Assembly: GCA_036172245.1 (NCBI GenBank)
Contig: JAYWIR010000049.1
Location: forward strand, 1,178,001 to 1,242,000
Origin: Raillietiella orientalis
Taxonomy: Eukaryota
Length of the DNA stretch: 64,000 nucleotides
Direction of reading: 5' to 3'
In this document: positions 6,521 to 57,961 of the stretch, piece by piece
Numbering within the stretch: the first letter of the stretch is position 1
Layout: each line of letters starts with the position of its first letter
Translations under genes and position numbers: made by a program
Notes under the pieces: generated by a model
The model's database searches: none
What the model was told of the DNA's origin: nothing
The model's input: the letters and a program-made list of their open reading frames with translations, nothing else

Positions 6521-7038
6521 TTGTTTCAGCTTAATCTCAAGATAGTCAGATGGCAACGAAAGCTGCAGTCGACTGCATGCGCAAGTTCCGAAGCCGGAGG
6601 AAACGTTGAGCGGGCTGTCTCTGTCTCCATAAGACGTTCGACTGCGTTAATCAATAAATTCTGAAACTTCTGGAACGCCTTGGACTCCCAACATGCCTCC
6701 TCGTTCACTTGCGTTCTCCATGGCGCAACCTGATTATCCATTTGTTTCCAAGCGGCTCTTACATGTCCAGCGTTGCTGTGCACAAAGACAGGAGGCAGGG
6801 CACAGCTTAAGCCCTATGCTCTTCAGTATCTACTTCAACTTGGTGTTGTAGACATATAAGATGACACTGGCCAACCTGCCCAGCTCTTGTCAGCGTACTC
6901 CCGTAGCCGCCTATGAGAACGAACTGCTTCTCCTGCTGCCCATGCTCACCCCGGCGTGCAGTTTCCAAGGTTTCTTCAAGTCGATCAGTAGGGGAGTCGA
7001 TCCGTAGGGAAGAGCATGGCTGCCCGGCCATGCTCCTC

Positions 7039-8379: not shown

Positions 8380-11075
8380 CCAACAACGGAGATGCGCCAC
8401 TGGCACGCAGGCCAGGAAAACGGAAGGTCCGGAACGGGTGAGGGAGGAGGGGACTACAAACAGAAAAGAACAGTCTAAATGGGAAGAAAGGGCCAGAGAT
8501 CTTTGGTGACGCTCCGCAGTCACCGGGAAAATCAAAGAGTAATAGCACCAAAAGCACTACGGAGCAAATGGGAGAAAGGGCGCGAAAACAAAAATGAAAT
8601 TAAATGGGAATAAATGTGGATCACTGGGATCGTCGTTCCAAACCGTAGGTAATCTGGCTATGGATGCCGGTGAGCTTTACCGTTGCGTTTTTGATTAATT
8701 GGCACCACCCAGCTGCCACACTGATAAAGTCGGCTGTCTTCCAGGTGACACAACATCGCTGCCTAGTGTTCTCCAGCACGTCTCGGACCGTGACGATGGC
8801 GCGGATGCAACCAACGGTCGCAATCATCGCTGCCGTCGAAGGTCCTTGTGGCTGGAAGAACCGTCGCAGCACTTCACGAGCAGTGTCCCTCGGTGACAGG
8901 AGTGCTGCTGCCAACCTCCGGCAGAGTTCGTGGAGGGCACCGCAGTACAAAACAAAGTGCGGGAATGACTCCCTCGCCCCGCACCGGGCACAGCACCGGG
9001 GGGTAGCCACCCCACCGGAAACTCGGTGCCGCCGCTCATTGTAGTGCAAACCCCAGTGCAAGAAGAGCAAAACGTCCTGCCTCCAGGCAAGAGGAAACAC
9101 CGAACCCTCCAAACAGCAGGGAGGGACTATCACTTCCTCGGGGGCAACACTAAGAGCTTCTTCCCACCGAAAGAGTATCTTTGACGTAGCACGAGAAGTG
9201 GCAGCATCCGCCAGCTCTCTCGTGTCCCATTCGCCAAGGAGTTTTCTTCTTCCTGCGATGGTGCAGGAGAACCCCCACCTCACCGGTTGGCTACTGTCTT
9301 CTCTAGCCTCGAGGGCAGACAGTGCTTCGGCGAGGGGCGTAGTGGCCAGGGAGGAAAACTTCACCTCGTCCTGCTTCACATCTTGGAGTGGCCAAGGTTG
9401 GAATTGACGCAGGGGGCGAAGATCTTCGGGGCTCATTCTCAGGAATGCAGCCAAGAATCAACAGATTCCTGCCGCCAAGCATTGCAGTTCATTGGGCGGC
9501 AGGAAATACAGAATTGGCTCGCAACAGTGAGGCGAGTTGCCTCAAAGGATAGCCAAACCCCTGTGGCGCCTGCCCGGCACCAAGGAAAAAAGTCCTTCAT
9601 TGCCAGCACACCCCCGTAGGAGGATGCGCGCAGGCGCACAGAGCAGAGAAGTCCATAGCTCGGCACACAGTGCGAGCATCCGGAACTGCACCTGCAGCCC
9701 GATTCTCTCCATCGTAAGGATGCCAAGTCCAGCATCCCGACTGCAGCCGTCAGGTCTTTGAGGCGGATCCTGGATCGCGCCGGACCCCAGAGAGCGTTCC
9801 TTAGCAGGCGTTTAGCTCGCTCTTTTGCCGCGTAGGGGGGGTCCAAAACAAAAAACAGGGGTCAGAGGTGGGGGACCATGAAGGTGTTCCAAATAGCTGC
9901 CCGTTCCGGCAAGGTAAACTTGCCATTAATGAACGGGATGGAGGCCAACTCTGCCTGATGAAGCAGCGGCAGCACCGAGGTCGCCCAACGGAACGCCAAG
10001 GTATTTGAAATACCGGCCCGTGGGGATCCCCAGGCAGATCCACTCGGACTGCCGCTCCCACGACGCTCTCCCAGGAACGACCGCTCCCCAACGCTCTTCT
10101 TCCTGTCCACGCTCACTCCCGCTCCCCGACGAATCAGGTCGAAGAAATCTTCGATACTGGACGCCGGGGTGGACATGGGGACCAGAAGAAGCAGGTCATC
10201 TGCATAGGCAGCCACGGCAGGCGTTCCCGGGCAAGAGCTAGGCAGGTACTCCAGCGTCAGCCTGTACGCCCTCAGCATCAACTCAACGAAGATGCTGAAA
10301 AGCAGCGGGCTTAAGCTGTAGCCCGTACACGTGGCAGCCGCTAAAAGAAACGCAGGTTAGCGCGTGGCGCCAGCAAGCGCGCAAGTAAATCAAGAGTTGC
10401 GCCGGGAGACCGAGGCATTCCAAGAGGAGTCCCTGGTTTACGCAATCGAACGCCTTGTGGAGATCGACTGCGACCGCCAAGGCACCCGGCGTACCCTCCT
10501 ACCGCTTCTGCCGATACCGTCTGTCTTCGGCAGCGGCCTTTGACACGGCCCGGCTTTGCTGCGCTACGCGCTCCTGCAGCTGCATCCAGGAGCGGGCGAA
10601 CATGAGGTTCTCGTCCATGGACCGCCCGGGAATAGCGTAAGTCTGCTCCGGGCTTACCAAGCAGACTGCGCGATCCTCCCTAGCCGCGCGACACAGCTTG
10701 GAGAACAGCTTCATGCCCGAGTTCACCAAGGTGACCGGGCGCCAGTTGTTCAGATGGCGTGCGTCTCCACCTTTCTGCAAGAGACGCACCCTCGCTGAGC
10801 GGAAGGAATTGGGGACATCCCCTGAAACCCCCATCAGCGACAAGAGTCTGAGACGAGCTCCGCCGCGAAGCACTGATAAAAAACTCCGCGGGGAGCCCAT
10901 CCTTGCCTGGCGCTTTTCGTCTCTTGAGCCCCGCGATGGCGGAGGAAATTTCCTCCGCCGTGAAGGACTCGTCCAGACGTGCGCGTTCCTCCTCGCTGAC
11001 GACGGGAGCATCCTGAGACAAGAGTAAGTGGGAAAGTCGCAATCACTGCGAGGGGCACTCTGGCGCGGACATCCG
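8380..11075 (-). mobile_element. 5'-truncated, frameshifted L1/Tx1-clade non-LTR retrotransposon (RT plus C-terminal zinc knuckle)
   Basis: Motifs in order: FTAEEISSAI..KAPGKDGLPAEFF; LLQKGGD..NWRPVTLVN..KLFSK; SPEQTYAIPGRSM; VDLHKAFDCVN; AYADDLLL; then CARCGARESFPHFVLYC. Multiple frameshifts. Confidence 0.9.
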
Positions 11076-11077
11076 AC

Positions 11078-11130
11078 AAGGATTCCAGCTGCTAACACGT
11101 AGCGATTTGTAAATCGCAGGAACGTGTTGC
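11078..11130. repeat. Nested palindrome resembling Wolbachia intergenic palindromic elements
   Basis: AACACGT..GCGATTT-GT-AAATCGC..ACGTGTT forms a nested hairpin. The lead-in GGATTCCAGCTGCTAACACGTAGCG resembles Wolbachia repeat motifs as I recall them (not searched). Confidence 0.4.
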
Positions 11131-11222
11131 CAGATTTTATAAAATTTATTATCCTCAAGACTTGAAGTCTTCACATGTTTTGTATGTACAATGCGTTTAT
11201 TAATGAAGATCCGGGGAGAACG

Positions 11223-11753
11223 ATGGAAGAGAAATTAATATATTACTTTGGTAAGGACAGTTGTGAAGGCAACGCAGAAATGAAAAGGCTGCTAAGGGGA
11301 AAAGGGGCAAATTTAGCGGGAATGTGCGATATCGGTGTTCCTGTTCCTCCTGGTTTTGCAATTTCTACTTCTGCTTGTAAGCAAGATTGTCTGACAATCT
11401 GCGTGATGAAATCAAGGAATACGCGGCAACTCTCGGAGGTGACGTTGGCTGTAAGTTCGGGGATTTGGATAATAACCCTTTGCTACCTTCAATACGCTCT
11501 GGTAGCGTCAATTCAATGCCAGGCATGCTCGCTACTATTTTAAATGTTGGTCTGAATGATGAAACTGTTGTTGGGATTATAAGAAAACCAATGGAGGAAC
11601 CGGTGAGGTTATGCTTAGCATTCTTCTACAATTTCATCCGAGTTATCACAAGCATTCAAAACAATAATTAGCTGGATAGATGAAATCAAAACGATCAAAG
11701 TGAGAGCAAATGCCGATACGCCAAAAGATGCAGAGATTGCGAGAAAATTCGGT
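11223..11753 (+). pseudogene. ppdK: Pyruvate phosphate dikinase pseudogene, Wolbachia-like, internally deleted and 3'-truncated
   Basis: GGAG ribosome-binding site, then [53 protein letters not shown]. Near 11588 it jumps to the mid-protein segment [35 protein letters not shown]. Confidence 0.95.
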
Positions 11754-12617
11754 TCGTAGTATTTGTTTGAAGCAAGGACTATCTCGTTACCTTTCTCATC
11801 AAGTTGTAAAATTACTGCTGAACGTCCGTTGCCTATATCATGACCTTTTATCACTTTAAATATTTCAATCTTATCCTTTTCTATAAGTTCTTCTAATTCC
11901 TCGTTCTTTCCATTTAACTCTTCTTCCCTTTGTCTTTCTGCTTCTTCATCAGCTTCCTTTTGTAGTTGTGAGAATACATTTTGTAATACATCTTGTGTTT
12001 GCGTTGCTTAGCAATTTATCTAGTATGTTCGATACAATTGGTAATAATTCACCACGGTCATCAAATACTTTTTCCTTTGCTTCATCATAGTAATTCGGGT
12101 TATAGATGGCATATAGAGGATAAAAACCAGAATCTGCTCTTGACACATTGCTAGATGACAGTTCCATTGAGAACCCGTAGCGATCAAGCGGGAGATTGGA
12201 AGTTAAATATCCACCGCTGTCGCCCTTAATGTAGAACTCATTTCTATTATCATTATGCTCATCATATTTGTTATAGTAGAGATGAAAATTTTCAGGGTCG
12301 AGATTTGAGCAGTTATCTAGATTATCAAGTTGATTCGAACTGCCGAGCTTTTCACGCAAAAGATTTTTGCTCTCGCTTGTGAGCTCTATACGCGATATCA
12401 TCAAAATGATTGGTTAATTGATCTATAGATTCACCTTCTCCTATTCTCAAATTCAGAGGAATCTTATCGTCAACCATTAGTAAGCTCTTGTAAATCATCC
12501 TAACATTTAACAATGATAAGGTGTGTACTATGGAAAACATGTTAATCGTTAAGATTTTTTGTGTATCTTGGTGAGGTACGGTAGGTTCAGTGCATAAGGC
12601 TAGAACAGAAAAAGCAT
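11754..12617 (-). pseudogene. Frameshifted bacterial-type hypothetical protein, probably endosymbiont-derived
   Basis: ORFs 12352-12540, 11949-12404 and 11615-11854 join through frameshifts into one intronless AT-rich gene with an acidic coiled-coil-like stretch (KEADEEAERQREEELNGKNEELEEL). It is truncated head-on against ppdK. The start position is uncertain. Confidence 0.55.
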
Positions 12618-12642
12618 GTTTAGGTTAGCTATTAGTGGTCAA

Positions 12643-13695
12643 TTATGCACCGCTACAATATTTGTTTACTGTTATGTCTGTAAGATATCCCACTGCACCA
12701 CCTAATGCGGCACCCCTGCAATTCCTGACAGTACAGCAGTTGCAATGACCCCGACAGCAGCAATCTCAGGTATAATCCCTATGGCAACTCGCGTGGCTCG
12801 TACAGCACCAAACGCTGAGCCTATTGTACATACTCGTGAAGAAATTTCTGAAGGTTGTATTCGCGAGAAATTATGTATTTTCTTGTTGGATATAGGCAGT
12901 TGCTTGTTGTTTTTTGTTGTTTGCCAAAATTATTGTTATTTCCATTGCCTGTAGATGTTGTTGGAGGTAAAGTTCTATTCCCTGAAGGCGTTTTTAGGCT
13001 ATCTACTAGTTGTATCTGTTTCGTAGGTGTTGGAGTAGTGGTTCTAGCGAGGTCAACAGACTCTTGAGCAGGTTGTTTAACACTGTCCAAAATATCATTA
13101 GCTTTATAATTTCTGTAATGCCAGCTTTTATCACTCGTAATGGTAACATTTTTATTCCTATCGAATGCAAATAACTGACCTTCGCAATATATTTTGTCAT
13201 ACATTTCGCCAAAATCAGGAGAAGAAGAACTTATATCAATAAGTTTTAATAGATTTAAGGTATTTTCAGTTTTTATTTTCCCTATTAACATATTTGCCAT
13301 ATGACTTTCTCCAAGAAAAGGTTCGTGAGCGTTAACCCTGCGAAGCGCTTCTTGGAAAGCCGGAAGTATGGCATTACCCTCTCTTGACACAGCAAGTATA
13401 GGTAAATCAAGTCTTGCAAGCCCATCTACATCCTTAAATAAATAGGCAAATAAATAACCCCTCCTTTTATCATTCTTACTTTGCCAATTTTCTTTCCTTC
13501 AATGGGCAAAGTATCAAAATCGAAAATTGCGAGTGGGTTGCCAACTCCTACTATTGGATCGGAATGAACTGATAAATGATATTTCATCAAATCTATTGCA
13601 TCACTGAGGTCCATTCTTGTTTTTACTCTTTCAGAACACATATCATTCCAATATTGTGATAATTTCCTGTGCATCCTTCCAAACTGCTGGAGCAA
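12643..13695 (-). pseudogene. Frameshifted bacterial-type hypothetical membrane protein, probably endosymbiont-derived
   Basis: ORFs 13426-13698 and 12821-13390 plus a shifted tail give a globular region, a T/P/N-rich linker and a G/A-rich hydrophobic C-terminus (IGSAFGAV..AIGIIPEIAAVGVIATAVLSGIAG), ending at TAA 12643-12645. The 5' end is missing. Confidence 0.6.
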
Positions 13696-13729
13696 CACGA
13701 GATCTTACGGGCTGGTGCTAGCCAACCGC

Positions 13730-15550
13730 ACCCAATTATCTACGGATCCCTGCCGCCAAGCATGAAAGTTCCAAGAGCAGATCTACTCGTTGGTTTCCAA
13801 CAAGGAGACTAGCTGCTTCAGGGGAAACTCCAAGAGCTGCAGAACGCATGATTCTTTCCCAGAATGCCAGATGTCCCTGGTGGGAAGAAATTTGTGCAGA
13901 GACCGCCAGAATCTTACTCCTGCCACTGAGGTGCACGAAGCTTCCTTCGTGGGGACAGAATGACGCTTCGTTTGCCGAGAGTGTGCTTGAGGCAGCAGAA
14001 AATGTCATGCGGTGGTGTAATTGGTTGATAAAGACAAAGACCGCGAAGACATTCGCGGTGGAGCAAACCACGCACACGTGAAGGTGAGTGGTTTGTAGCA
14101 AACTCTGGAGCTGACGTGGCAGTTCGCAACAGCGCCTCTAGTGGAGCACCAGGGTGGAGTCGATGCCCTCTAGGCAATCGGTGAGCTCATTGCTGAACAT
14201 AATGGGCGTTTGTTGAAGAATGCCTCAGAGCAGGTCTGAATCTCCAAAGAGGTTGTTGGCTCGAAAAAGCTGGCTCCTCCTGAAGAACTGCTCTCTTCCT
14301 AGAGAACGACCTAATTCATCGAGTACTGTCTCTGAAAAGCACAGGAGCTCTGGTCGTCATCTCTTTGGGCTGACCAGATCACCGAAACAACTTAGCAGCG
14401 AGCATCGAACAGAGGATTGGATCGCAAAATGAGCACTTGTGTTGACACCCGGTCACGCCGGGCGCTTCTTTATTAAAAATAAAACTTGGACGTCAGTGGC
14501 AAGATGCGTGATCCTGTCGAGCTACAAAAGAGGCGAGCCTTGCCGGCGCTCAGGCCGGCAAGGCTCGCCTCGGCAGCACAGGGGAAGGAGAGATAAATAA
14601 AAAGAAAAAAATAAAACGAAAAACATGCAGTCGAAAAATGGGGGTTCGGGAAGGGATCACTGTGTGCTGGAGAGTGGTCCTCTGCACCTTTGTAAGGATG
14701 CCAGCAAATTCCTGTTTAATGGTTCCCAGATGGGGACATCTTGACGCTATCCTCATGAAGAGGGCAGAAAAATGGATGGTGTCCCTATCGATCTGAACTC
14801 CTCGGCACGAGTCACTTGTGCAGAAGATGAGCAAGATGAGAAGAATCTATGAGCGAAAGACGTTTCACGCTGCGTGAACAATTCAGATGAGGGTTAAAGA
14901 GAGACCAGGGTGATGCAGTGGTGACCTGGAAACCAGGAAGGCTACTGTGAATGATTGGTGATTGGCAGCAGCGGAAGAGACTTTTCCGGTAACGCGCTTG
15001 AAACAAAATTTGCTCAAGTGCTTCAGGGGGAATTGGTCGCACTAAAAGTCGAATTCCCAAGTGAATTTTCATCAACAACGCTTGAAGGAAAAAGCCAGGA
15101 GAAGGGAGGCAATCACCAAAAACTGGCTCTCCACCTCGCTTTCGAGGAATGTTCGCTGCAGTAGGGGCAACTCCTGTATGGTGCCTGGAATTTCGGGACC
15201 GAAGAAACAGTGCAGCAGCGAGACAATCGAGAATTTCCAAGAGGCAGGAGGAGCACAAACGAAACCGAAAGGAGGGGTGTGCTCGAGCATGCAGTAACCG
15301 CTGACTTCCAAACACCGGACGAAACGGAGGAACTTTCGAATTCATGGGATGAGCGGCAGAGACAGAAGATGGTGGGCGCTCCCACCCTTTGCAATCTGCT
15401 TGCATCTTCCTTCGAACGCTGAGCGATCGACAAATTCGAAATGAAGAAGCTTGCACGAGAGCGAGTAATGCCAAGCTTTCTAGTCATGTGTAACGAACAC
15501 GAATTGAGCAGAAATGGAGCTTTGTATCACTTTGGTTTGGGGTTGGCGTA
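13730..15550 (-). mobile_element. Decayed Penelope-like element (GIY-YIG-like C-terminus)
   Basis: RGLLHRECLRGLCLYQ..LKH and LAVSAQISSHQGHLAFW echo the VYxIxCxxC..YIG and SAxAxH...H..W patterns of Penelope endonucleases. Very degraded. Confidence 0.35.
14530..14571. repeat. Perfect 18-bp GC-rich inverted repeat (6-nt loop)
   Basis: GAGGCGAGCCTTGCCGGC-GCTCAG-GCCGGCAAGGCTCGCCTC; the arms are exact reverse complements. Confidence 0.95.
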
Positions 15551-15649
15551 CCGGTTGATGAGTGTCAAAAGGATAACCGAGACTTTTTCATGAGAAGAGA
15601 AACATTTTTTCCTTCTCTTCTATCCATTTTCTTTTGGGCCCATTCCCAA

Positions 15650-17000
15650 AGCTGGTGACTCGCGGAAGATAACCGGCCGAAGCGTTGGGCTGGTGGACTT
15701 GGACGACATTTGAGCAACTCAGGATCCGCCTCAAAGACTTGGCGGCTCCGCGGTCGGGGTGCCGGCTTGGGTATCCTGATGCTGGATAGGATCGGGCTGC
15801 AAGTGCAGTTCCGCATGCTGGCACTTTGTTCCGCAAGCTTTGGACTACTCCGTGGTTTGCTCCCGCGGGCCTGCTGCTGCGGTGCCGCACTGGCAGCGAT
15901 GGACTGCTCTCGCTGCTGCCTCACTCCCAGTGCGCCAAGAGAGAGTTCGGCTTCACGCTGAAGGAGCCCGCCTCGCTCCTGGAAGCGCATTCGTGGATCT
16001 CCTGCCACCCGACGAACTTTAAAGCGTGGCGGCAGGAGACGGTATCGTCCTGGGCAACGCATCAGGAAGTACCCTTTGTGGAGCTTCGTTGCGTGAATCT
16101 CTCCCCTTACTGTCCGATAGAGGATGTGTTGGAGGACTAGGGCGAACAAGTGGGCTCGCCTGGCAAGGGGCAAGGGGCTGCCACGCCCCTTGCCGCAGCT
16201 CTGTCTGACCTAAGGGCAAGAGATGACAGTAGCCTACTGGCGCGGTGGTAGGTCGCCTGCACGATCGCAGGAGAAACTCCACCCATGGGCGGCTGGATGG
16301 TGAGCGAGCTGGCAGACACCGACACTCGTAGTTGTGCGAAGGGACCCTTCGGTGGAGAGAGCTCCAGAGTGTGCCCACCGAAGAACTAGTGGTCCCTCCT
16401 TCGTGCGTGGACACGACTGTGTTCCCACTTCGATGGAAACCGGACGCTTTTCTGCGGTTACATTGGGGTTTCCATTGCAATCAGCACGCAAACCTAGTTT
16501 CCGGGGCAGTTGCGTCCCCGAACTGTAGAAGGTACGGAGCAACGGAATAGTTCCCGCACCTGCTGTTTGACTGCGGTGCCCTTCGAGGACTGTGGCGGAG
16601 GCAGTCTTCAGCGCTCCTGCATCCGGGGGACACCGCAATGGACGTAATGCCCCGCTTCTTCACGGCCTCTCGCTAGGTGCGGTCATCGCAACCATCTTGC
16701 ATCCGCGCCATCGTCATGGCCCGCCACGCGAGAGTCGCGAGCGGCCCAAACAGAGGTCACCACGATTGCAGTCTCCAACATGAGGACGGCTGCCAGGTGG
16801 CCTCACATGAGCGAAGAAGGCAGGTGGAGGATCTCCGGCATTGTGCGCTGGTTCTGGGAACAAAGAACGGCTGAAGCCAAAGACCCCTGTCCCCTACCCC
16901 CCTCCTCCCCATATCTCATTGTATTTATTTATTGTCCCCTTCCTCCCGTTCCTGACTCTCAGTATGCCCGACCTGCATGTCGGGGAGCCCTCCCGTTGAA
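15650..17000 (+). mobile_element. L1/Tx1-like LINE 3' half, third copy of the same family, opposite orientation
   Basis: GAGLGILMLDRIGLQVQFRMLALC, CHPTNFKAWRQETVSSW, EELVVPPSC..FPLRW..FLRLHWGFH and CRRYGATE*FPHLLFDC each parallel segments of the 8.6-9.8 kb copy. Confidence 0.8.
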
Positions 17001-18196
17001 CTTCTGCTCCCTTTGCCTGGGGACTATATTTCCAGATGATTCCATTTCTAATAGGCGTTCCGGCGCAACCGGGTAAGAAACATTTGAGCAACGTGGAACG
17101 CAACATGGAAAGAGGGTCCACGACGATCTGTTCTCAATTTTGAGAAATCGGCCTTGTGCTGTTTCCGAAATTGTGAACCTCAGCCCATTTTCTTTTAGGA
17201 CCCACGCCTGGAATGGAGATGCGGACCTCTGCTGCGCTGAACAATTCGTGCAAACTGACGCAGTTGACGTCAGGAGAACCGAATTGTCTAGATAACGGGT
17301 AGAAGTGACTTTCACGTAAAGAACACGAGATGGGATTTTTAGATAGCAGGAAAAGCTCGTAATCGTCACTCTCCCATCCATAGAGCCTGGAAAGTTTGCA
17401 TTTTCTGGGAATGGAAACTGTTCGTTGACGTTTCACGTGGAATGCCGAAGGAATCGACATGTGCAACGGGAAAGGAAAATTTTCATTTTGAACAGCTGTC
17501 GGCATTCCCTTTGAACGGGAAGTGTTAAACTTGTATGAGTTCCGGGAGAACACAAGGGAGTATGTCTTTTGTTGCATTTTTATCGCAGTTCAAAACTCTC
17601 ATGCCATTCTGGCGCTCAGAAAGCTTTCAGCCTGAAATGACAGCCAGGATTCTCCGTGTTTTTTAAAACTGAATACATATGCCCGTTACTAGCTTCTCAC
17701 TGAACAACAGTTAGTGTACTAGAAGGTGAATGATGGAAAGAGGCATCAGCAATGAACATAATCGTAGCCTATGTATTGATACACCAATGTATTGATGAGT
17801 ACGGAGAATGAACACACACTTTTTGCTAGTAACATGTATATGAATTAATGTTAGCGCCACCAACAAACAGTGTATAAATACCATTGCTTGTACCCATTAG
17901 CAGTATCCATTTTTTTTTTTATATTGATTTTTTGTTCCAGGTTCAAAAATGCTTTGTGATATGACCACATTAATGCACTGGATCATTACTAATAAACCAC
18001 GCACTAATGCTTTGCTGTTGTACATTTACGGTTTTTTAACATTACTTTCATACTAACTGCTGCTAAAATACTGACTGAGAATGTCAACTGAAGCACCAAA
18101 AATTTTTCAACTACTGATTTCTTCCATTAAAAGATACTCATAAATGTGATCACTGAAAACTTTCAATCCATCACTCTCTCATCTCATTTCAGTCCT

Positions 18197-21100
18197 TTAG
18201 TTTATTTTCTTCCCAATACTTCGTGTAACTGTAGACATACCATCAACAAATTTGGTCCGAAACAGCACATTGGCATTGTTAAACATTCCTTCTTTCAATG
18301 ATACAATAATGAACTGGATATAAGAAATGAGACTAGTATGAACAGGAATTTTAGTGTACCTGAGAATGCCGAAAATGAGTCTTGATGATAGTTCCAATGT
18401 TCTGTGTGTGACTGAGATCCAATGCTGCATCTACTTCATCCAAAATATAGATAGGTGCTGGCTTGAAAAGTAGCATGGCCAAAATTAAAGATAGTGCAAC
18501 TAGTGATCGCTGACCTCCACTTAATTCAGTAAGTGAATCTTTCCATTTATTCCCAAATGCAATTTTGACCTGCAAATCACTGTAAAAATTTAGTTTTGTG
18601 TGTTTTCAGTACCTCAAGTCCATCAAGCACATTTCCTCCTGTAGGTGGTTGGAGTCTTGCCTGGGTTCCAGGCAATAATGCAGTAAAAATTGAACCAAAA
18701 TCTTTATTTACTTGATGGCAGGCTTGTTTAAGCACTTCATTTTTTTTGTCATCAATTTTCAGTATGAACTGTTCTATTTTTGCTTTATCATTCTCAACAA
18801 TTTTCTTACGTTTGATCAAATCATTGTACTAAAAAAAAGTACAGAGATATTTATTTGAAAATGAATTTTAAGTTACAACCCACTGAACATGCATCCTACC
18901 TGATCTTCTGCTTCAGTAAGAAGATTCATAGCTCTCATGTTGACATTTCTACTCAGTTTGGTTTTTGTTTCTTCCAAATCTTGGATACGATGAGCCATTC
19001 TTTTAGGATCTAAGGAGCTGAAATTATACATTGTGTTGGACTGGCCAAAATATTGCATTTCTTGAGATATCCATTCATGTTTATGGAGTAATGCTTGTAC
19101 TCTCTGCTCTGCATCATGCAGTTTTTCTTCAGCTTGTTGCACATGATGATTTAATTTCTTCATTTCCAGCTGAAGAGCATTCAGGTTGTTGGTGTGAGTT
19201 TGTTTTTGGAGAATTATAGCATCAATCTCACGGTTCTGTTGAGATAAAATTTTTTTATGTGCTTTAACTTCCTCGCTGATTTTATCCAGTTCTTGCTAAA
19301 GACAAATGTGTGAGTACTTCATATAAATGCGATCACAATGGAATATATTAAATAATAAGGTGCTCACACTGGCTTGATTCACTTCAGTTTCTAACTGTGC
19401 TTCTTTTTCTTTTAACATTAGGAACTCTTGCTCAGCTACTGAAATGCTCTCTTGGACCTTTTGGATGGCTTGATCCAAATCTTCACATTCTAACTTCAAA
19501 GTTTCTGCTTTCTGAAAAGCTACTCCTTAGGATACATGCAGGATAGAATATCAGATATGATTATCCTAAATTTTCTATTACATTTAAAATAATGATATGA
19601 TGATATTCTTTTAAAAAAACACGCACACACATATGAAACCCATTTTTCAAGTCATTACAAATGCATGAATAAGTACTTGTGAGGTGGACACCTGCTGTCA
19701 TCATACTTTGATTGGAATACTAATGTTGCATGAAAAAACTTAGAGCAAGCAAGCCTTATACAAAATCAATTAGCTATTGGACAGAAGAACTGCTATACAA
19801 TAAAACCAGAATGCTAATTTCGTTATATAAATAAAACTTTCTCCACATTAGGCCATACATTTCGATCTTATCAAGAGGTACTTCCTTGACAAGAAAAACT
19901 ACATTCCAAATTGTTTCTTTAACTTGGACTTTGTTATCCTGTTTCCAAAATCAAGGATTTCAGTTGCATTTTACCTAATTTTCAAAGATTCTAAAACATT
20001 AATAGATTCATTGTGCAATTTCCTTTCCTCTAATGAATAGGCCTCTCCATGGTTCTTGGACATTATCTCTGAGGGGATCTCCAATATACAATTCTCTCTA
20101 AAGCAACTAGACAATATAAATTTCGGCCAATAATGTAAGTGGAGAAAAACAATTGAAGTGCTGAATTGTAAACAAAAAAATTTCCAAAAATAATTTGCAA
20201 AGCACTAAAATTAATAATTAGGAAAAATTTTGGCAATGTTTTGGCAATAACAAAATTTACATAAAATTAAATGAATTAAGCACAATGAATTCTCATCTAT
20301 CTATATCACAACACATAATTTTCTCTATTTACCATACTTCCTTGAAAATGACTGCATGGTTACTTTAAAGGTGGAAATATATTAGAAATGTAGTTCTTAT
20401 AAAAACGCACAAAAGTATACACACATATCTAGTGAGGGCAAGTTCCAGAATTAATGCAGAATGCATCGTGAACGGAACTTTCATTGTTTACAATTGGATA
20501 TGGAAGAATTGAAAATGAGCTAATTCTCAGTGCAGTTTGAAGAAATATTTATTTTGAGGGCAATCTAGCAATTTTGAAGTACAAATCAATTTTACTTGAA
20601 GAAATAAAAAACTGCGAATCTCAACATCTATTCTATTAGGTAAGCAAGATAATAAAGCACTTACATAATAAAATAAATGTTAAGGGAATTTACTCCAGAA
20701 AAGAATACATGCTCCCCAAAGGTATGCATTTACAAAAAACGTTACTTTCATTCACATGCATCACTTTTGCATAAGTCATAGTTTCCCTTCAAAAATACTT
20801 ATTTGAGATGATTCACATTTACATCAGTCATCAAGTACCTATACCTGAAGAAATATGACTGCTAGCCTTTATTTTGTATAACTTCATGTTAGAAACATGT
20901 ATTTTAAGAGTTAAATACAGTTAAACTCCTTTAAGCAACTCCACAACACATAAAAGAGCCCAAATAGTGCTTGCTTTCGATTCCAAATTCATTCATTTTT
21001 TCAATATTTAGAACAGGGGGGATTATCATACCTGTGCCTTCTCTTTCCATTTTTTTCGTGAAATATCTGCCTGCATACGACACTGCTTTAATTCTTTTTC

Positions 21101-47600: not shown

Positions 47601-49539
47601 CCAAGCATTTTTCCCATGACGTAAATTACAGAGACAACAGCAAAACATTACTGGATGCCTACAAGGCAAACAATGTTTCGAAAATGACCCATCGGAAGCA
47701 CTAGACATTGCATGAGTAGAAGAGTAAATCAAGATACCTATTGAAGGAGGCAAAAAAAGAAAACGAAACGAAATCAAACTCGGTATATGTGGAGAGGATG
47801 GAGCGCATTCAAAATCTACAGAGTTGTTTTTCATCAAGTCAGGGATGGGTTGCATTTCGTGTTCACCTCATAGAGGATTGATTGCAAAGTTGGCCGTAGC
47901 TCAGTTTCGTGTCGAATCACATGCTCGCTGGATAATAAACACCAACTACACTGTGCTATTGTGGTGCTCGACGTTGGATTACGCAGTCACCTAGTTTGTC
48001 CGTTTCCAATTAAGATTTCAGGATTCCAGAGAACTTCGTTGCATGGCAACGCTGTGGCAGTTTCCGACCGAGTCAAGTGACGATTTCAAATCTGGTCAAT
48101 AATTTGAGTGCACTTAATTAGTAAGCAGCACTTGGTTAGCGTAGTTCGTCTCTTGATTTGTGTGAGATCTTTTCCTAAAGCAAAAACTCGGTGTTTGCTT
48201 CAACTTTGGAAAAAAAAAAAAAAAAAAAATCCTCACATGTCAAATCTTTGCATAATTTGCTTCTCTTTTTCATCTTTCCATGCTTTTGTCAGTGTAATAT
48301 AATTTTCAGTTACAACTGTGGCAATTCTATTTCTGATGATACCCCATTCTGTGGCGGTGTTCAAAATCCAATCAGAAATATTTTCAGTTGTATACTTTTC
48401 AGCAAATTCTCGACAGCTCAGGCGAGAAGATTGAAAACATAACTGGAATGACAAGCAAATCATGAGTAGTGAGTACCAGAAAAGTTGTGTTGCATAGAGA
48501 GGTCCATCCAGTGGCGGTGAGGCAAATAGCACAAGCGGAATTGAATTTTTGTTTCTTTGTGCAAACTGGGAATGCGACTGTTTGAAATAGTTTTTCGTGA
48601 TGACAGCTGATATCCAGGGTTGAGCAAATAGACAGAGGTTTTAAATTCAACACCTTCTACCAAGGAAAATGGACGAGATTACTTATAAATCATTTTTACA
48701 CGTTTTCATTATTTTTCTAATGGAGACAGGCTCTACAATGTTTATGGAAGATGTTCTAGGTGATTGCCCTGTTGAGCTCTGTCTGAAGGGAACTGGAGGT
48801 AGAAGGAGTCTCAGCTAGAAAGTTTTCATCCGGTCCATTCTGCGAGTCCAGTGTTGAGAGAACAGTAGAAAGTTCCGAACCGGATGGGGCGGGAAAAGAA
48901 CACAGGGTGTTCTTGGAATGGATGACGGAGCCATTTTTCCGAGTGATGTTATTCTGATCGAGGGAACCGCCGTGTGCCCCCTTTCCAGGCGTGGCGACAA
49001 ATCCCCAATGCCACCTCCGGTCACGCTGATTGTGTTTTTGCAATACCGACACTCGGTCTTTTCCTCCATTGACTGAGAAATGGTACAGCATGCCACTCCT
49101 TTTTTTCCTCCATAGGAGCTGAAAGCGACAATTTGGCTACGCACAAATTGTGTAAGAACTCGCAAATATTTCCTTTTTTCTCGTCACTAACCAATTTGCA
49201 GATTGCAGCCATGCATGCTGAGAACAGGTGAAAAATGGGATTAAAAATACGTAGAAAAACAAGTACTCGAGTACTCGAGTAGAATTTTCCCCATCATTCT
49301 TCCCGCTTCGTTCCTGGATGTGATGCGGTGGCATTTGGTTTCCCGGTTGCCGGAGTCGCAGCAAGCAACGAGTGTGAACCCTGTTTCGACCGGATGCAAC
49401 GCAAACGGATGCAATTCTCCTGCCTGTTACCTTCGGAGACGGAAGCGTCCGAGGTGGTTCCCCACCATCTTCCGTAATGCCCGGAACGCCTTGCACGTAC
49501 ACGCTATCCGCGTCTCTTTTTCTTTCCTTCCTGGAAGTG

Positions 49540-52925: not shown

Positions 52926-53335
52926 TTCGAGGAGCGTCGCTTGAGACCCAGGACAAACCAAACTCTGGCTACGAAGTTTGAGTATTCATTACTGCTTTAT
53001 TTTTTATTATTGTCTGCCCATTTGGTTATGAAACTCATTTAGTGATAAGTCGTACTGGAAAAACCACTCTGGCTCATGAAGTTGCAGAAAGACTTGAAGA
53101 TATCACTTGCAGATTTTTACTCCTCTGAAGAAAAAATAGGAGAAAAAAATAGCAAGTGGCTCATTTGAAACTTAGGGATGATTATCGCTCCATGTTCTAT
53201 GAGAACAGTGTCTGAAATTGCTTCAGGCGTCACTTCCAACCTGTTAACGAGAGCTGCAGATGTAATGCTAAAAGAAAGAAGGAAGTTCTTATGGTGTGAG
53301 AGTCGCCATTGCATCTTGGTCATTTACGAAATATG
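52926..53335 (-). mobile_element. Decayed mariner-like transposon 3' end
   Basis: [26 protein letters not shown] follows the mariner C-terminal HDNA..FP..K..L.G..F.S.EE layout. TTCGAGGAGCGTCGCTTGA resembles TACGAGGGGCG-type TIRs. Confidence 0.45.
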
Positions 53336-53342
53336 TTAAAAT

Positions 53343-53499
53343 TGACGGAGCTATGTTTTTAGGGCTAAATGGTATCGTCATTAAAAGTCATGGAAATTCT
53401 GATGCTATTTCTTTTGCTCATGCTATAAAATTTGCAGTAAATGCCATTAGTAAAAATTTAAACCAAAAGATAATTAATGAGGTAAGTCAGGTTGAATAA
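53343..53499 (+). pseudogene. plsX: Phosphate acyltransferase PlsX 3' fragment, Wolbachia-like (nuwt 2)
   Basis: [43 protein letters not shown] is the PlsX C-terminal motif. The 5' part is absent. Confidence 0.92.
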
Positions 53500-53801
53500 A
53501 AGTTTTATATTAAGCACTGGATCTTACTTGCCAAAAAAAACATTGAGTAATAACGAAATTGCATTAATGGTTGAGACAAGTGCTGAGTGGATTAGACAGA
53601 GAACAGGAATAACTCAAAGGCATATAGCAGACGAAGGAGAATGGACTCTCAGATCTAGCTGTCAGTGCAGCAGAAAATGCTATCGAAAAAGCTCAAATCT
53701 CAGTAGATGAAGTTGGTCTAATCATAGAGGCAACACCCGATAGAACTTTTCCTAGCTGCACAACTATTTTGCAAAGCAAGTTCAAATGTAAAAACGCATT
53801 T
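53492..53801 (+). pseudogene. fabH: Beta-ketoacyl-ACP synthase III 5' fragment, Wolbachia-like (nuwt 2)
   Basis: TTG start overlaps the end of pls[47 protein letters not shown], frameshift, then [33 protein letters not shown]. Ends before the catalytic Cys. Confidence 0.95.
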
Positions 53802-56800
53802 GGGGTTAAACTTCTGCTCTGTAGTATTATCTTCCCTGCTATCTTTAGGGTAAGAAATGAACTTCATGTATTGCTACTAAATGACTCCATGCTTCCGTGA
53901 AGTGCATACGCAAAATCTATTAAACAAAATACCTGAGACTATGGCTCTCCTTCTGAAGAGTGTCAGCAGATGAAAAGTATCATTTCATGTTGTCATTCAG
54001 TTTGTTCTAAGGATGCAACTGAAAACTAAATCCTGGCCATAGAACAATGTATGTCTATATCACTTGGTTATGTATAGTGTGCAGTTCTATCGCCACGAAT
54101 GCTTTCAAGACATGCAATGCCCTAAAGTTTCTTTAAAAAAATATCTTTTGTTTTTCTGTGCAACAACTGCAATCATGAACTTGATTTAACCTCCAGATGG
54201 TAGGCTTCCGATGGAAGCGATTAGGTTGATAATCTATGACAATAGATTATCATCTTTCACTCTAACACGATTACCAATTCTGCAGCACAAGTCTCAGACA
54301 TCGCTGCCTTCCATTTTATTCAAAAACCTTATGACTGTTTATCTCAAGAAACAAACGTGTGAAAGAAAAAGCATTTCGCTTCAGTATGCGTAAAACACAG
54401 TTCATCATTAAAGATTAAGAATGATTCTAAAAGAATTTAAGTGTAACAGAACTATGAAGCATTGGCGATTACATGCAGAACTGAAAGCTTGCTTTGTAGA
54501 TGGAGTGGTTACAAATCATGCCGCTTAACGGCTATTTACTAACTCAATAAAACCTAAAGTTTTCCAGTATCCCATGCTAGTATGCTTTGAGAATTTATTT
54601 TATCTCCATCGTCATATCATACTTTCTCAATCATTTATAAGTGTTCTGTCATTGTCATCACCAATTTGCCTCAAACCTGTCTTATATGTATGTGGTATGA
54701 CTAAACGCACTTGAATGTTACGACAGCAACTAAATGCAGATCCTACGTCTTCAGGGCCAGAGACACATTCTCTACATGAAATAGTCGATGTGTCTACAAA
54801 TAGAAGCATATGATGTGGTGTCCTTCGATTTTTTAAGAGCAATTTCTCATTTTTAGATTCAGATCCGAATTCAATTTTTGTTTTTTTTTTCTTTTTGCCT
54901 GTAAAGAGAGCACTGATTTAAATTAAAAACGTTCGCGTTTCTACTTGAAGTCTCCTGGAGTTTTTAAGCTTTACAAGATTTACAAGAAGTGAATCCGATG
55001 TAAAGGAATAAGGGGCAATGTTTAATCCTGGAAAAAACATCACACCTTGGACCATTCTGTGATGAAATGACCAAGAGACAGCGCGATCTGGAATAATGGT
55101 CACAATCAAAGGAGTCAACATTGGGTTTCTCACGAAAATGTTTCCTAGGGAGCTTGTTTCATACCTATTATTTCACATTTTATTATCAGATTCATTTCGT
55201 TTCAGGAATTTTGTAAACTCAGCATGCCCATGTCAAGTATAGGCAAACTGGGAATCCCAAGAATGATGAGATTAGCTATCATTTCCGTCTCATGAGTGTT
55301 TTTACTCTATTGACTGTCTTTGTCCGACAGCGAGTTAAGCTTACTCTATTTGCTCTATTGAGTGACTCTGTTGTGTTTACTTTCACATCATTTCTTCAAG
55401 AAATTGGTTGAGTAAAGTCCGAAATTGCGTGTGATCATTTGCTTCATGAAGAAAGACGAAAAGCACATCTGATTTAAATGATACTGATTCTGATGTAAGT
55501 GAATCCAAACGATTCCCAGCGTAGCGTGACGTTTCAAGCTCTGAGAAGAGCCTTCATTTTTTCTGAACATGGATACTGTTTATTAGCTAAAGGGGAAACT
55601 GGAAATGACATGTTTGTCTGTACGTGGGATGTAGCAAAGGATATTGACGGGAAGCATCTACTGTGTGCAAACATGTTGACGATACATCAGGGATCATGGC
55701 GAGTACACATGTGCTGCAGGCACATGCTGAGCAAATTCCTTATTTTCTGTGAACACAGCTTTATGACTATTCCAATATGAGTCGATCCGTTGTTTCTGTA
55801 AAAGACAATTGCGTATACATGATTACTGAGAGCTACTAAACAGCATGCATGAAATATTTATTTCTGTGATTTGTTTCAGGCACTTGTGTTCCATTTGTAA
55901 AATCCACCAAGAAAACAACTGATCATTCAGCAATAGCCACATTCAAAAACGCATTTTCATTTTAATCCATGCACATTTATTTAATATGTGTTAGTAGTAT
56001 GTCTCTGATATTGTCTCTGATATGTCTCTACTCATTGACAAATCCTGAAAATTAAAAAAAAAAAAAAAAATTTTTTTTTTTCAAAAAAATAACCCAACAA
56101 GTAAACGAATGTACTTATTAAGTAAAATTTACTTCGAATGCATACGCATTTCACACCCATCATTTTGCTGCACGAAAATCTCAAAAGAACGTCAGTTTTG
56201 GAATTTTTCCTCTTCATGAAACAGAAACTTCGATAAGAAGAGTAGCAAAGGTCAAAGATCCTGCTGCTTCCCTTGAAGAACCTTGGAGACACATTAGTGA
56301 CCTGAACAAGCGTTCGATCCGGGAGAGGGGGCCGATGGCCGATGCGATCGTCGTCGCGGCACCTTGTCTTCTTCGGTTGTGGGGGGTGTCCCCACCCTTC
56401 TTCACAAGTCCGAGTCGTGGAGGTCAGCAACAACAACGAAGCTGCAGTAAGAGTTCCAAGCGACGTTGCTTGAGGCGTGTAAGGATGGCTGACGGCCGTC
56501 GTCGAACTCGCCCTACTTGGAAACAGTTATGCAACGTGTTATCGGCACTTAGATTGCAGGAAGAATTGGGGGAATGGCAGAGTTATCTCCGAATGATGTG
56601 GAATGTCGATTCGTGGCCAAGTTTCGATAACAGCCCAGCCGACCTGCTCCCTTCTTTCACGATAATGGAGCACTGGAAGTACTGTTCTCTGCACACACCT
56701 CAGCACACTTGATGCGTGCTGCTAAAGCAGAGATCGACCATTCAAGAAGAAGAAAGGAAAAAAAAACTCGAGAAAGTTTTGTAGGGTGCACTTATTTGCC

Positions 56801-56918: not shown

Positions 56919-57961
56919 ATGCATTTGTGTGCGGCATGCAATTCTCGTTTCTGGGATAAGCAGAAAGTGTGGACAAGCCCTCGAGTAGTGGTAGGTTCGT
57001 TTTTAAATGAAGATGTGTTATTCAGTACCTACATAGCCATTCGAATTGTATGATCTTTTCAGCTGAAAAGCATAGGGCCAAAACTCGTTCCATTTTTCAA
57101 GACGGTTGCCATATACTTTGTGTTGCTAATCCCATCGGACAGCCCCTCATGGTTTGCAGTTCTTCTGAAGTGTGCTCCCATATTATCGTTAGTTTTTTTT
57201 GTCTTGTTGCACGGAATAAGCTTAGGAGAAGAGTGAGTATTCCTAATTACGAATGTACCCATCCAAGTTCTCTAAGGTATACTTATTCTCGACGTGTACT
57301 TTGTGGACTTCTGTTTTCGTGTATTGGTGATGCGCTCCTAGTGTTTCGTCCATGCTTTGAACTAGGAATTTTGGCCTTCAGTTTAGCCCAAATCATGTAT
57401 ATTAGTGCCTTTGGGTTCAGACCAATTAACCTTTCAGTAGGGTTTATTCTTTACGCGGTAGCAGTATCAGGTATTATCGATTATTGTAAACTGTTTAAAA
57501 GAATACTTTGCTTTTTAGTATATAGTGTTTTCGAAGTAGCCGGCCCTCTATCTATAGCTGTTCTATTCTATTTATTGTTAATGGCCACCATGGTATGGAG
57601 AGCTGTAGCTCGTGTCCAATTCTTTGAAGTCAGTTCTTTTGTTTCTTAAACTGATTTAAAACCTATGAAGGACCTGTGGACCTGGACCAAACTTTGTTCA
57701 TGCGCCGGAGGGATTCTGTTTGGAATATCTGATGCATTATTAGGAGTAGCAATGTTTACATCATCACTAAAGTACAATCAGGTGCCCTTTTTAATTCCAT
57801 GTTTTGAAAGAGATCGTTTCTTTGTCCTGCAGATAGGAATTATGGGTACTTATTATGCAGCCCAGTGTGGTATAGCACTGAGTGTTGTAGATTGTAAAAT
57901 TGAGGAAGACATGCAGTGTAGATGCCATACGAGTGTGATGCATCCAGATGAAAATACATGA
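56919..57961 (+). CDS. TMEM86: TMEM86/YhhN-family lysoplasmalogenase-like protein, 6 exons
   Basis: TSPRVV|LKSIGPKLVPFFKTVAIYFVL; GLLFSCIGDALL; AQIMYISAFG; MVWRAVARV; LFGISDALL; IMGTYYAAQCGIALS. Introns 56991-57062, 57233-57276, 57471-57518, 57629-57670, 57782-57832. The start codon is inferred. Confidence 0.9.

Follow-up and report, generated by a model that had tools for sequence, protein, structure and literature searches.

A decayed mosaic of Wolbachia DNA, probably an old nuclear transfer, beside retroelement remnants in a Raillietiella orientalis contig

We analyzed a 64,000-nucleotide stretch of the Raillietiella orientalis assembly GCA_036172245.1 (contig JAYWIR010000049.1, positions 1,178,001 to 1,242,000 of the forward strand), hereafter called the window, in which a first-pass annotation, made from the letters alone, had marked positions 11078 to 13695 as a transfer of Wolbachia DNA to its host, wedged between two retroelements. 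Our results support a model in which this block is a nuclear Wolbachia transfer (nuwt), that is, DNA from a germline infection that was incorporated into an arthropod chromosome and has since decayed as non-functional sequence; we put the probability of this interpretation at roughly 0.9. The block is of Wolbachia ancestry, and its donor belonged to the crown clade of that genus. The claim of a transfer was upheld by the placement of the block's ppdK gene remnant within Wolbachia, by DNA matches of the block to Wolbachia genomes (E values of 1e-85 to 2e-196), and by a gene order shared with a living Wolbachia strain.

Similarity to Wolbachia spans positions 11104/11118 to 13665/13678 in blastn, tblastx, and reference alignments, and a tblastx comparison of the whole window with 137 Wolbachia loci (688 kb) placed the limits of the block at 11114 and 13678. 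The extent first given was thus right for the interior and not for its margins, 11078 to 11117 and 13666 to 13695, which have no Wolbachia assignment. At the left edge, alignment begins at 11104 with one of three Wolbachia references and at 11118 with the two others, and blastn similarity likewise begins at 11118; the junction stretch at 11079 to 11117 could be filler or diverged Wolbachia intergenic DNA. At the right edge, in a junction zone at 13666 to 13700, the nucleotide alignment to genome G050 (genomes and loci are cited by our G and L numbers) ends at 13665, tblastx similarity runs to 13678, and GC content rises beyond. The AT richness noted in the first pass is evident, with a GC fraction of 0.385 to 0.41 at 11 to 14 kb, compared to 0.58 to 0.61 at 9 to 11 kb and ~0.50 to the right.

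The block is a patchwork of three or more pieces that do not adjoin one another in Wolbachia, arranged head to tail or in inverted orientation: the upstream region and 5' end of ppdK, an internal part of ppdK, and an inverted 1.9-kb piece. Only ~640 bp (11118 to 11753) belong to ppdK; the remaining 1.9 kb (11756 to 13665, minus strand) consists of parts of two other, uncharacterized Wolbachia genes, and some part of 11756 to 13700 is matched by 47 of 60 Wolbachia genomes. All three gene remnants are truncated and frameshifted, in agreement with the frameshifts reported at first. A second copy of any block piece was not found within the window. A scan for tRNAs over 10500 to 14500 and over the ppdK upstream region of locus L002 detected none, and a search of a phage collection returned four ~105-bp matches of the ppdK region, all to unannotated Listeria phage records, which are uninformative.

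The N terminus of PpdK, recognized in the first pass, was recovered in two plus-strand open reading frames (ORFs) at 11175 to 11671, which match PF01326 (PpdK N-terminal) at 27.4 bits (E value of 2.6e-6) and 17.1 bits, the Pfam cutoff for PPDK_N being 27 bits; eleven ORFs were tested in all, and the remaining nine matched no family. Piece a of ppdK (11118 to 11587, plus strand) comprises ~105 bp of upstream non-coding region and codons 2 to ~148, with 72 to 78% nucleotide identity to Wolbachia loci (blastn); conservation with Wolbachia includes the ~100 bp of non-coding sequence upstream of the gene. This piece carries a frameshift and has lost ~79 nt at 11381 to 11411, and tblastn places PpdK residues 2 to 54 in frame +3 and residues 91 to 168 in frame +2. 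Piece b (11589 to 11753, plus strand) comprises codons ~525 to 580 at 83 to 87% nucleotide identity and contains the segment IDEIKTIKVRANADTPKDA. The PpdK segment singled out in the first-pass annotation, WIDEIKTIKVRANADTPKDA, occurs at ~11676 to 11735, where it agrees with a Wolbachia PpdK at every residue. Between pieces a and b, 1131 bp of ppdK have been deleted (reference L089 jumps from 1532 to 2663), and the deletion ends in short similar motifs. Piece b is abutted by the inverted piece, which derives from a distant region of the Wolbachia genome, at a junction that is clean to within 2 bp (11754 to 11755). The locus has no intact PpdK domain set (N-terminal, phospho-histidine, and phosphoenolpyruvate/pyruvate domains in one frame); of the 906 residues of PpdK, the block holds only 2 to 54, 91 to 168, and ~525 to 580, in different frames.

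The inverted piece contains, on the minus strand, the remnants of two genes separated by an intergenic spacer (12484 to 12651). The first, here called 'hyp' (11756 to 12483), corresponds to residues 4 to 246 of an uncharacterized Wolbachia gene whose product has 310 to 587 residues in living strains; the remnant has at least two frameshifts (frames -2, -3, and -1) and a 9-residue deletion, is cut off where piece b adjoins, and is 71 to 77% identical to Wolbachia DNA. The longer 'hyp' homologue of G050 has C-terminal ankyrin repeats, a part with no counterpart in the window. The second, a membrane-protein gene (12652 to 13665), corresponds to residues 141 to 470 of an uncharacterized Wolbachia protein (476 residues in G050), lacks the N-terminal 140 residues, has at least three frameshifts (frames -2, -1, -3, and -2), and is 75% identical to G050 at the DNA level (E value of 2e-196). 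Neither gene has a significant match to a Pfam or NCBIfam family, the weak matches (E values of 0.004 to 0.09) lying below the family cutoffs. The membrane-protein gene is rare among Wolbachia: its 189-residue ORF found a match in 2 of 60 Wolbachia genomes in a whole-genome search. With the same ORF, a protein pattern scan of genome contigs gave 90 pattern matches of which none was confirmed, and a search for homologues of near-equal length found none.

In the Wolbachia strain wCon, locus L082 matches the window without a break over 11797 to 12857, and both genes occur there in the same order as in the window, adjoining priA; a gene order of Wolbachia, the membrane-protein gene preceding 'hyp', has therefore been retained in the window. 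Genome G050 also has the membrane-protein gene beside priA, followed by a transposase-like ORF pair (L087, 2427 to 3253), with 'hyp' ~330 kb away. The two genes are thus adjacent in wCon and in the window and apart in G050, and the arrangement seen in the window may be the older one.

We scanned a 72-residue ppdK fragment against one genome per prokaryote species, which gave 260 relatives. Among the 80 of these that were kept, the first 20 were Wolbachia or contigs of metagenome-assembled genomes (MAGs) later placed in Wolbachia (63 to 76% amino acid identity), the next three were Ehrlichia (63 to 69%), and the remainder lay mostly at 49 to 60%. A search against Rickettsiales genomes had been proposed in the first-pass annotation, and the ranking, Wolbachia and then Ehrlichia, accords with the donor named there. 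In the ppdK tree, the window falls inside Wolbachia (support of 100/100) and, more narrowly, within the crown clade of the genus (100/99), where it joins no named subclade; in the 'hyp' tree, it is the sister of G009 within a G009/G050 clade (100/99). Could the donor have been another member of the Anaplasmataceae, or a relative outside Wolbachia? Nucleotide identity of ppdK to any sampled Wolbachia is only 67 to 80%, as such a donor might leave. We consider this origin extremely improbable, since the low identity is accounted for by neutral decay (see below), ppdK lies within the Wolbachia crown and far from Ehrlichia (58 to 60% identity), 'hyp' sits inside a terminal Wolbachia clade, and 'hyp' and the membrane-protein gene have Wolbachia matches and none in the one Ehrlichia genome searched (G005).

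The position of the donor within the crown clade was evaluated with approximately unbiased (AU) tests. Union of the window ppdK with the A-like clade (P = 0.42), the G041-type clade (P = 0.33), or the B clade of wCon and wStri (P = 0.33) was rejected in no case, and the supergroup that a ppdK phylogeny had been expected to supply was not obtained. For 'hyp', union with the G041-type clade was rejected (p-AU = 0.012, with test groups picked after the tree had been seen), and the donor's 'hyp' sequence points to the G009/G050 clade. One genome, G021 (L108, L137, and L170), groups with the G041-type clade when plsX/fabH or ppdK is analyzed and with the A-like clade when 'hyp' is; such trees suggest that 'hyp' is an accessory gene exchanged between Wolbachia clades. 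Among the sequences sampled, L001 (JAIRLR010000017.1) is a MAG contig titled Streptococcaceae that carries a Wolbachia ppdK, 92% identical to that of G050 in amino acids and within a Wolbachia clade, and is probably a misbinned contig; L003, titled Rickettsiales (genome G041), is likewise Wolbachia.

To quantify decay, we counted changes in the window at sites that do not vary among the ppdK genes of 12 crown-clade Wolbachia. The window ppdK is changed at 21/184, 22/200, and 9/66 such sites at codon positions 1, 2, and 3, respectively (52/450 in total, or 11.6%), and at 44/378 sites when 29 crown genomes define invariance. Living Wolbachia lineages show 0 to 4.7% change at positions 1 and 2 of such sites; the fastest of them has 51 changes at ~1349 invariant sites over the whole gene, and the window rate is ~3-fold higher. 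When 'hyp' is compared with eight close relatives, the corresponding counts by codon position are 28/182, 22/196, and 18/155; compared with all 31, 17/179 invariant sites are changed. The end branch of the window is long in both trees, at 0.29 for ppdK versus a median of 0.045 to 0.12 and at 0.19 for 'hyp' versus 0.034 for its sister G009. These data indicate neutral decay, of about 10 to 12% by the ppdK counts and about 9 to 13% for the block, at sites that are constant in living Wolbachia. The equal change at all codon positions, the frameshifts, and the deletions mark the sequence as free from bacterial coding constraint.

Equal codon-position rates, together with deletions, frameshifts, and truncations, argue for an old nuclear insert rather than a contaminating symbiont contig, a conclusion that the first-pass annotation had drawn from gene decay and that the rate comparison with living lineages strengthens. 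An assembly chimera, in which a contig from a living Wolbachia was misjoined to host repeats, has in its favor that the junctions adjoin repeat-like, GC-rich sequence, which is prone to such errors. It is nevertheless very improbable: a core gene with an internal 1131-bp deletion, frameshifts, and a truncation, fused to unrelated genes, does not belong to a living symbiont; change is equally frequent at all codon positions; the nearest sampled Wolbachia is only ~80% identical in ppdK and ~78% in 'hyp' by blastn (83% over the aligned columns of the tree); and the window contains two further decayed Wolbachia pieces, interspersed with host genes. If ~0.10 to 0.13 substitutions per site are assumed, the age of the insert would be at least on the order of ten million years, an estimate that uses general arthropod neutral rates, from which the host's own rate may differ. 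The block would be without function today.

The left neighbor of the block is a remnant of a non-LTR retroelement of the long interspersed nuclear element (LINE) type (8784 to 11078, minus strand), whose 5'-truncated end faces the insert. The reverse transcriptase (RT) reported there is present: RVT_1 matches at 9862 to 10356 with an E value of 2e-4 and 21.5 bits, below the Pfam cutoff of 29.6, and the ORF at 10499 to 11170 matches PDB entries for the reverse transcriptases of R2 and LINE-1 ORF2 (E values of 9.7e-6 to 2.6e-3), which identifies a domain of the non-LTR type. An endonuclease domain was not found in this element, and no Wolbachia similarity was detected to its left within the window. 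An inverted copy of its 3' part (8784 to 9772), 65.7% identical, lies at 15720 to 16723, and retroelement debris is therefore present on both sides of the insert. This inverted LINE-like pair brackets the insert with the 5' sides inward; in addition, 10122 to 10324 resembles 6798 to 6996 (72.9% identity).

The Penelope-like debris that had been described immediately to the right of the block was not recovered. No Pfam family is matched at an E value of ≤0.05 by any of the 37 ORFs of ≥60 residues in 13650 to 17600 or the 30 ORFs of 30 to 59 residues in 13660 to 15760; the longest ORF of this flank (223 residues) has no homologue; and 13.7 to 15.7 kb shows no similarity to the RT part of the left element. 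No remnants of RT or GIY-YIG domains were thus seen in the 67 ORFs, by tests that a heavily decayed element could escape.

End-joining repair, during integration or later, probably connected the donor pieces. The 5' truncation of the LINE falls exactly at the insert. Such an arrangement could have arisen if the LINE inserted later, next to the nuwt or within it, or equally if Wolbachia DNA entered a chromosome break next to LINE debris that was already there.

A further part of ppdK lies at 47630 to 48006 (plus strand), comprising the 3' end of the gene (residues 808 to 902) and ~75 bp downstream. It has the same orientation as pieces a and b, does not overlap with them, and contains two in-frame stops and one frameshift; 20/121 invariant sites are changed, a level of decay similar to or above that of pieces a and b and not significantly different from it (P = 0.057). 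This piece, ~36 kb from the other ppdK remnants, probably belonged to one original insert with them, and 34 kb that include SMC2, sybindin, and RALGAPB now separate it from the block. Its distance, beyond three host genes, can also be taken as a sign that the block is a secondary copy, produced by duplication or retroelement-associated movement of an older nuwt rather than by primary integration at this site. The retroelement remnants on both sides, the left LINE and the inverted copy of its 3' part, would fit such an origin, and nuwts have been duplicated in other hosts, as reported in PMC3849323 and PMC4299567. We regard a secondary copy as unlikely, given that no block piece recurs inside the window.

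Several observations weigh against a simple nuwt interpretation. The contiguity of both junctions comes from the assembly alone, and the sequence directly to the right of the insert matches no known family. No supergroup can be assigned from ppdK by itself, and the only resolved placement comes from 'hyp', a gene that seems to move between strains. The direction of substitution was considered as a sign of nuclear residence and set aside: the window has 28 to 35 AT-to-GC and 12 to 13 GC-to-AT changes, living lineages show the same AT-to-GC excess at invariant sites (187 versus 100), and the measure does not discriminate.

A composite Wolbachia fragment occupies 52990 to 53818, where the ubiX/folD region is followed by plsX/fabH, two regions from distant places in the Wolbachia genome. 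The fragment is 88 to 93% identical to a clade that contains G041, G038, G014, and others; its two parts nest in the G041-type clade with support of 100/99 and 100/98, and union with the A-like clade was rejected (p-AU = 8.8e-5). Changes affect 10/279 and 7/189 invariant sites, or 3.6%, compared to 24/257 in ppdK pieces a and b (Fisher P = 0.002) and 41/436 when 'hyp' is added to these (P = 0.0006). This fragment is therefore younger than the block and has a different clade affinity, which suggests a second insertion event.

We consider it slightly more likely than not that this 42-kb stretch retains two successive infections of a single arthropod lineage by different Wolbachia clades and that the older insert was later split by local rearrangement. 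The older insert would comprise the block and the ppdK 3' end, ~9 to 16% decayed and with 'hyp' as sister to G009, and the younger one the fragment at 53.0 to 53.8 kb, 3.6% decayed and in the clade of G041, G038, and G014. If true, symbiont replacement would be recorded in a single intergenic neighborhood, and the split would span SMC2, sybindin, and RALGAPB. This cluster of two ages and two clades is the most interesting lead to emerge from the window.

The DNA around the block is animal nuclear DNA with intron-split genes, and in the assembly the block is contiguous with it: the window contains host exons and YhhN-family ORFs in addition to the adjoining LINE RT. SMC2 exons extend over 18.35 to 24.8 kb on the minus strand, and the best PDB matches are to SMC2 (E value of 2.4e-26, versus 1e-9 or weaker for SMC1, SMC3, and SMC4). 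The last exon found, at 18354 to 18605, lies ~4.7 kb from the insert, close to the 4.5 kb first estimated. Exons of sybindin (35.6 kb), RALGAPB (38 to 42.3 kb), and tetraspanin (58.0 to 58.8 kb) were also identified. One RALGAPB exon was searched, and its nearest proteins are from insects, at 40 to 43% identity with beetles on top; by these matches, the host is an arthropod with no close relative among them.

Two adjacent plus-strand ORFs of 212 and 103 residues at 57011 to 57958 jointly span a YhhN-family domain, with no obvious intron across it. The nearest Atlas clusters of the YhhN-family ORF are bacterial, but the score of 0.83 is below the trust level, and a query with this ORF against five Wolbachia genomes gave no match; the pair is probably a host TMEM86-like gene.

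If the block is a nuwt, the host lineage carried germline Wolbachia long ago, and together with the younger fragment at 53 kb it could make a history of infection, whether loss, replacement, or double infection, readable from the host genome. Such sequence might also be misread as a live infection in Wolbachia screens that target fragments of ppdK or of other genes. The transfer is of a known kind; it adds no new mechanism, and there is no evidence of function.

The block resembles nuclear copies of mitochondrial DNA, in which organelle or symbiont DNA is caught at breaks by end joining, forms mosaics of non-adjacent pieces, and decays neutrally; the donor here differs in being a facultative bacterial symbiont and not an organelle. 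Closer parallels are the nuwts known in arthropods and nematodes, for example in Drosophila ananassae and Brugia malayi, which, as reported in PMC4299567 and PMC3849323, are likewise chromosomal Wolbachia fragments made of joined non-contiguous pieces and associated with repeats. In these accounts, the nuwts of those two hosts are large inserts of recent date, with duplication or transcription common, whereas the present block is small (2.6 kb), ~10% decayed, and broken in every gene. In filarial nematodes, PMC12693587 treats such inserts as fossils of past infections, with several supergroups represented in one host and with some inserts derived from a supergroup other than that of the current infection. 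The window is similar in that its decayed inserts imply earlier infections and show two clade affinities; unlike those filarial hosts, the host here is an arthropod.

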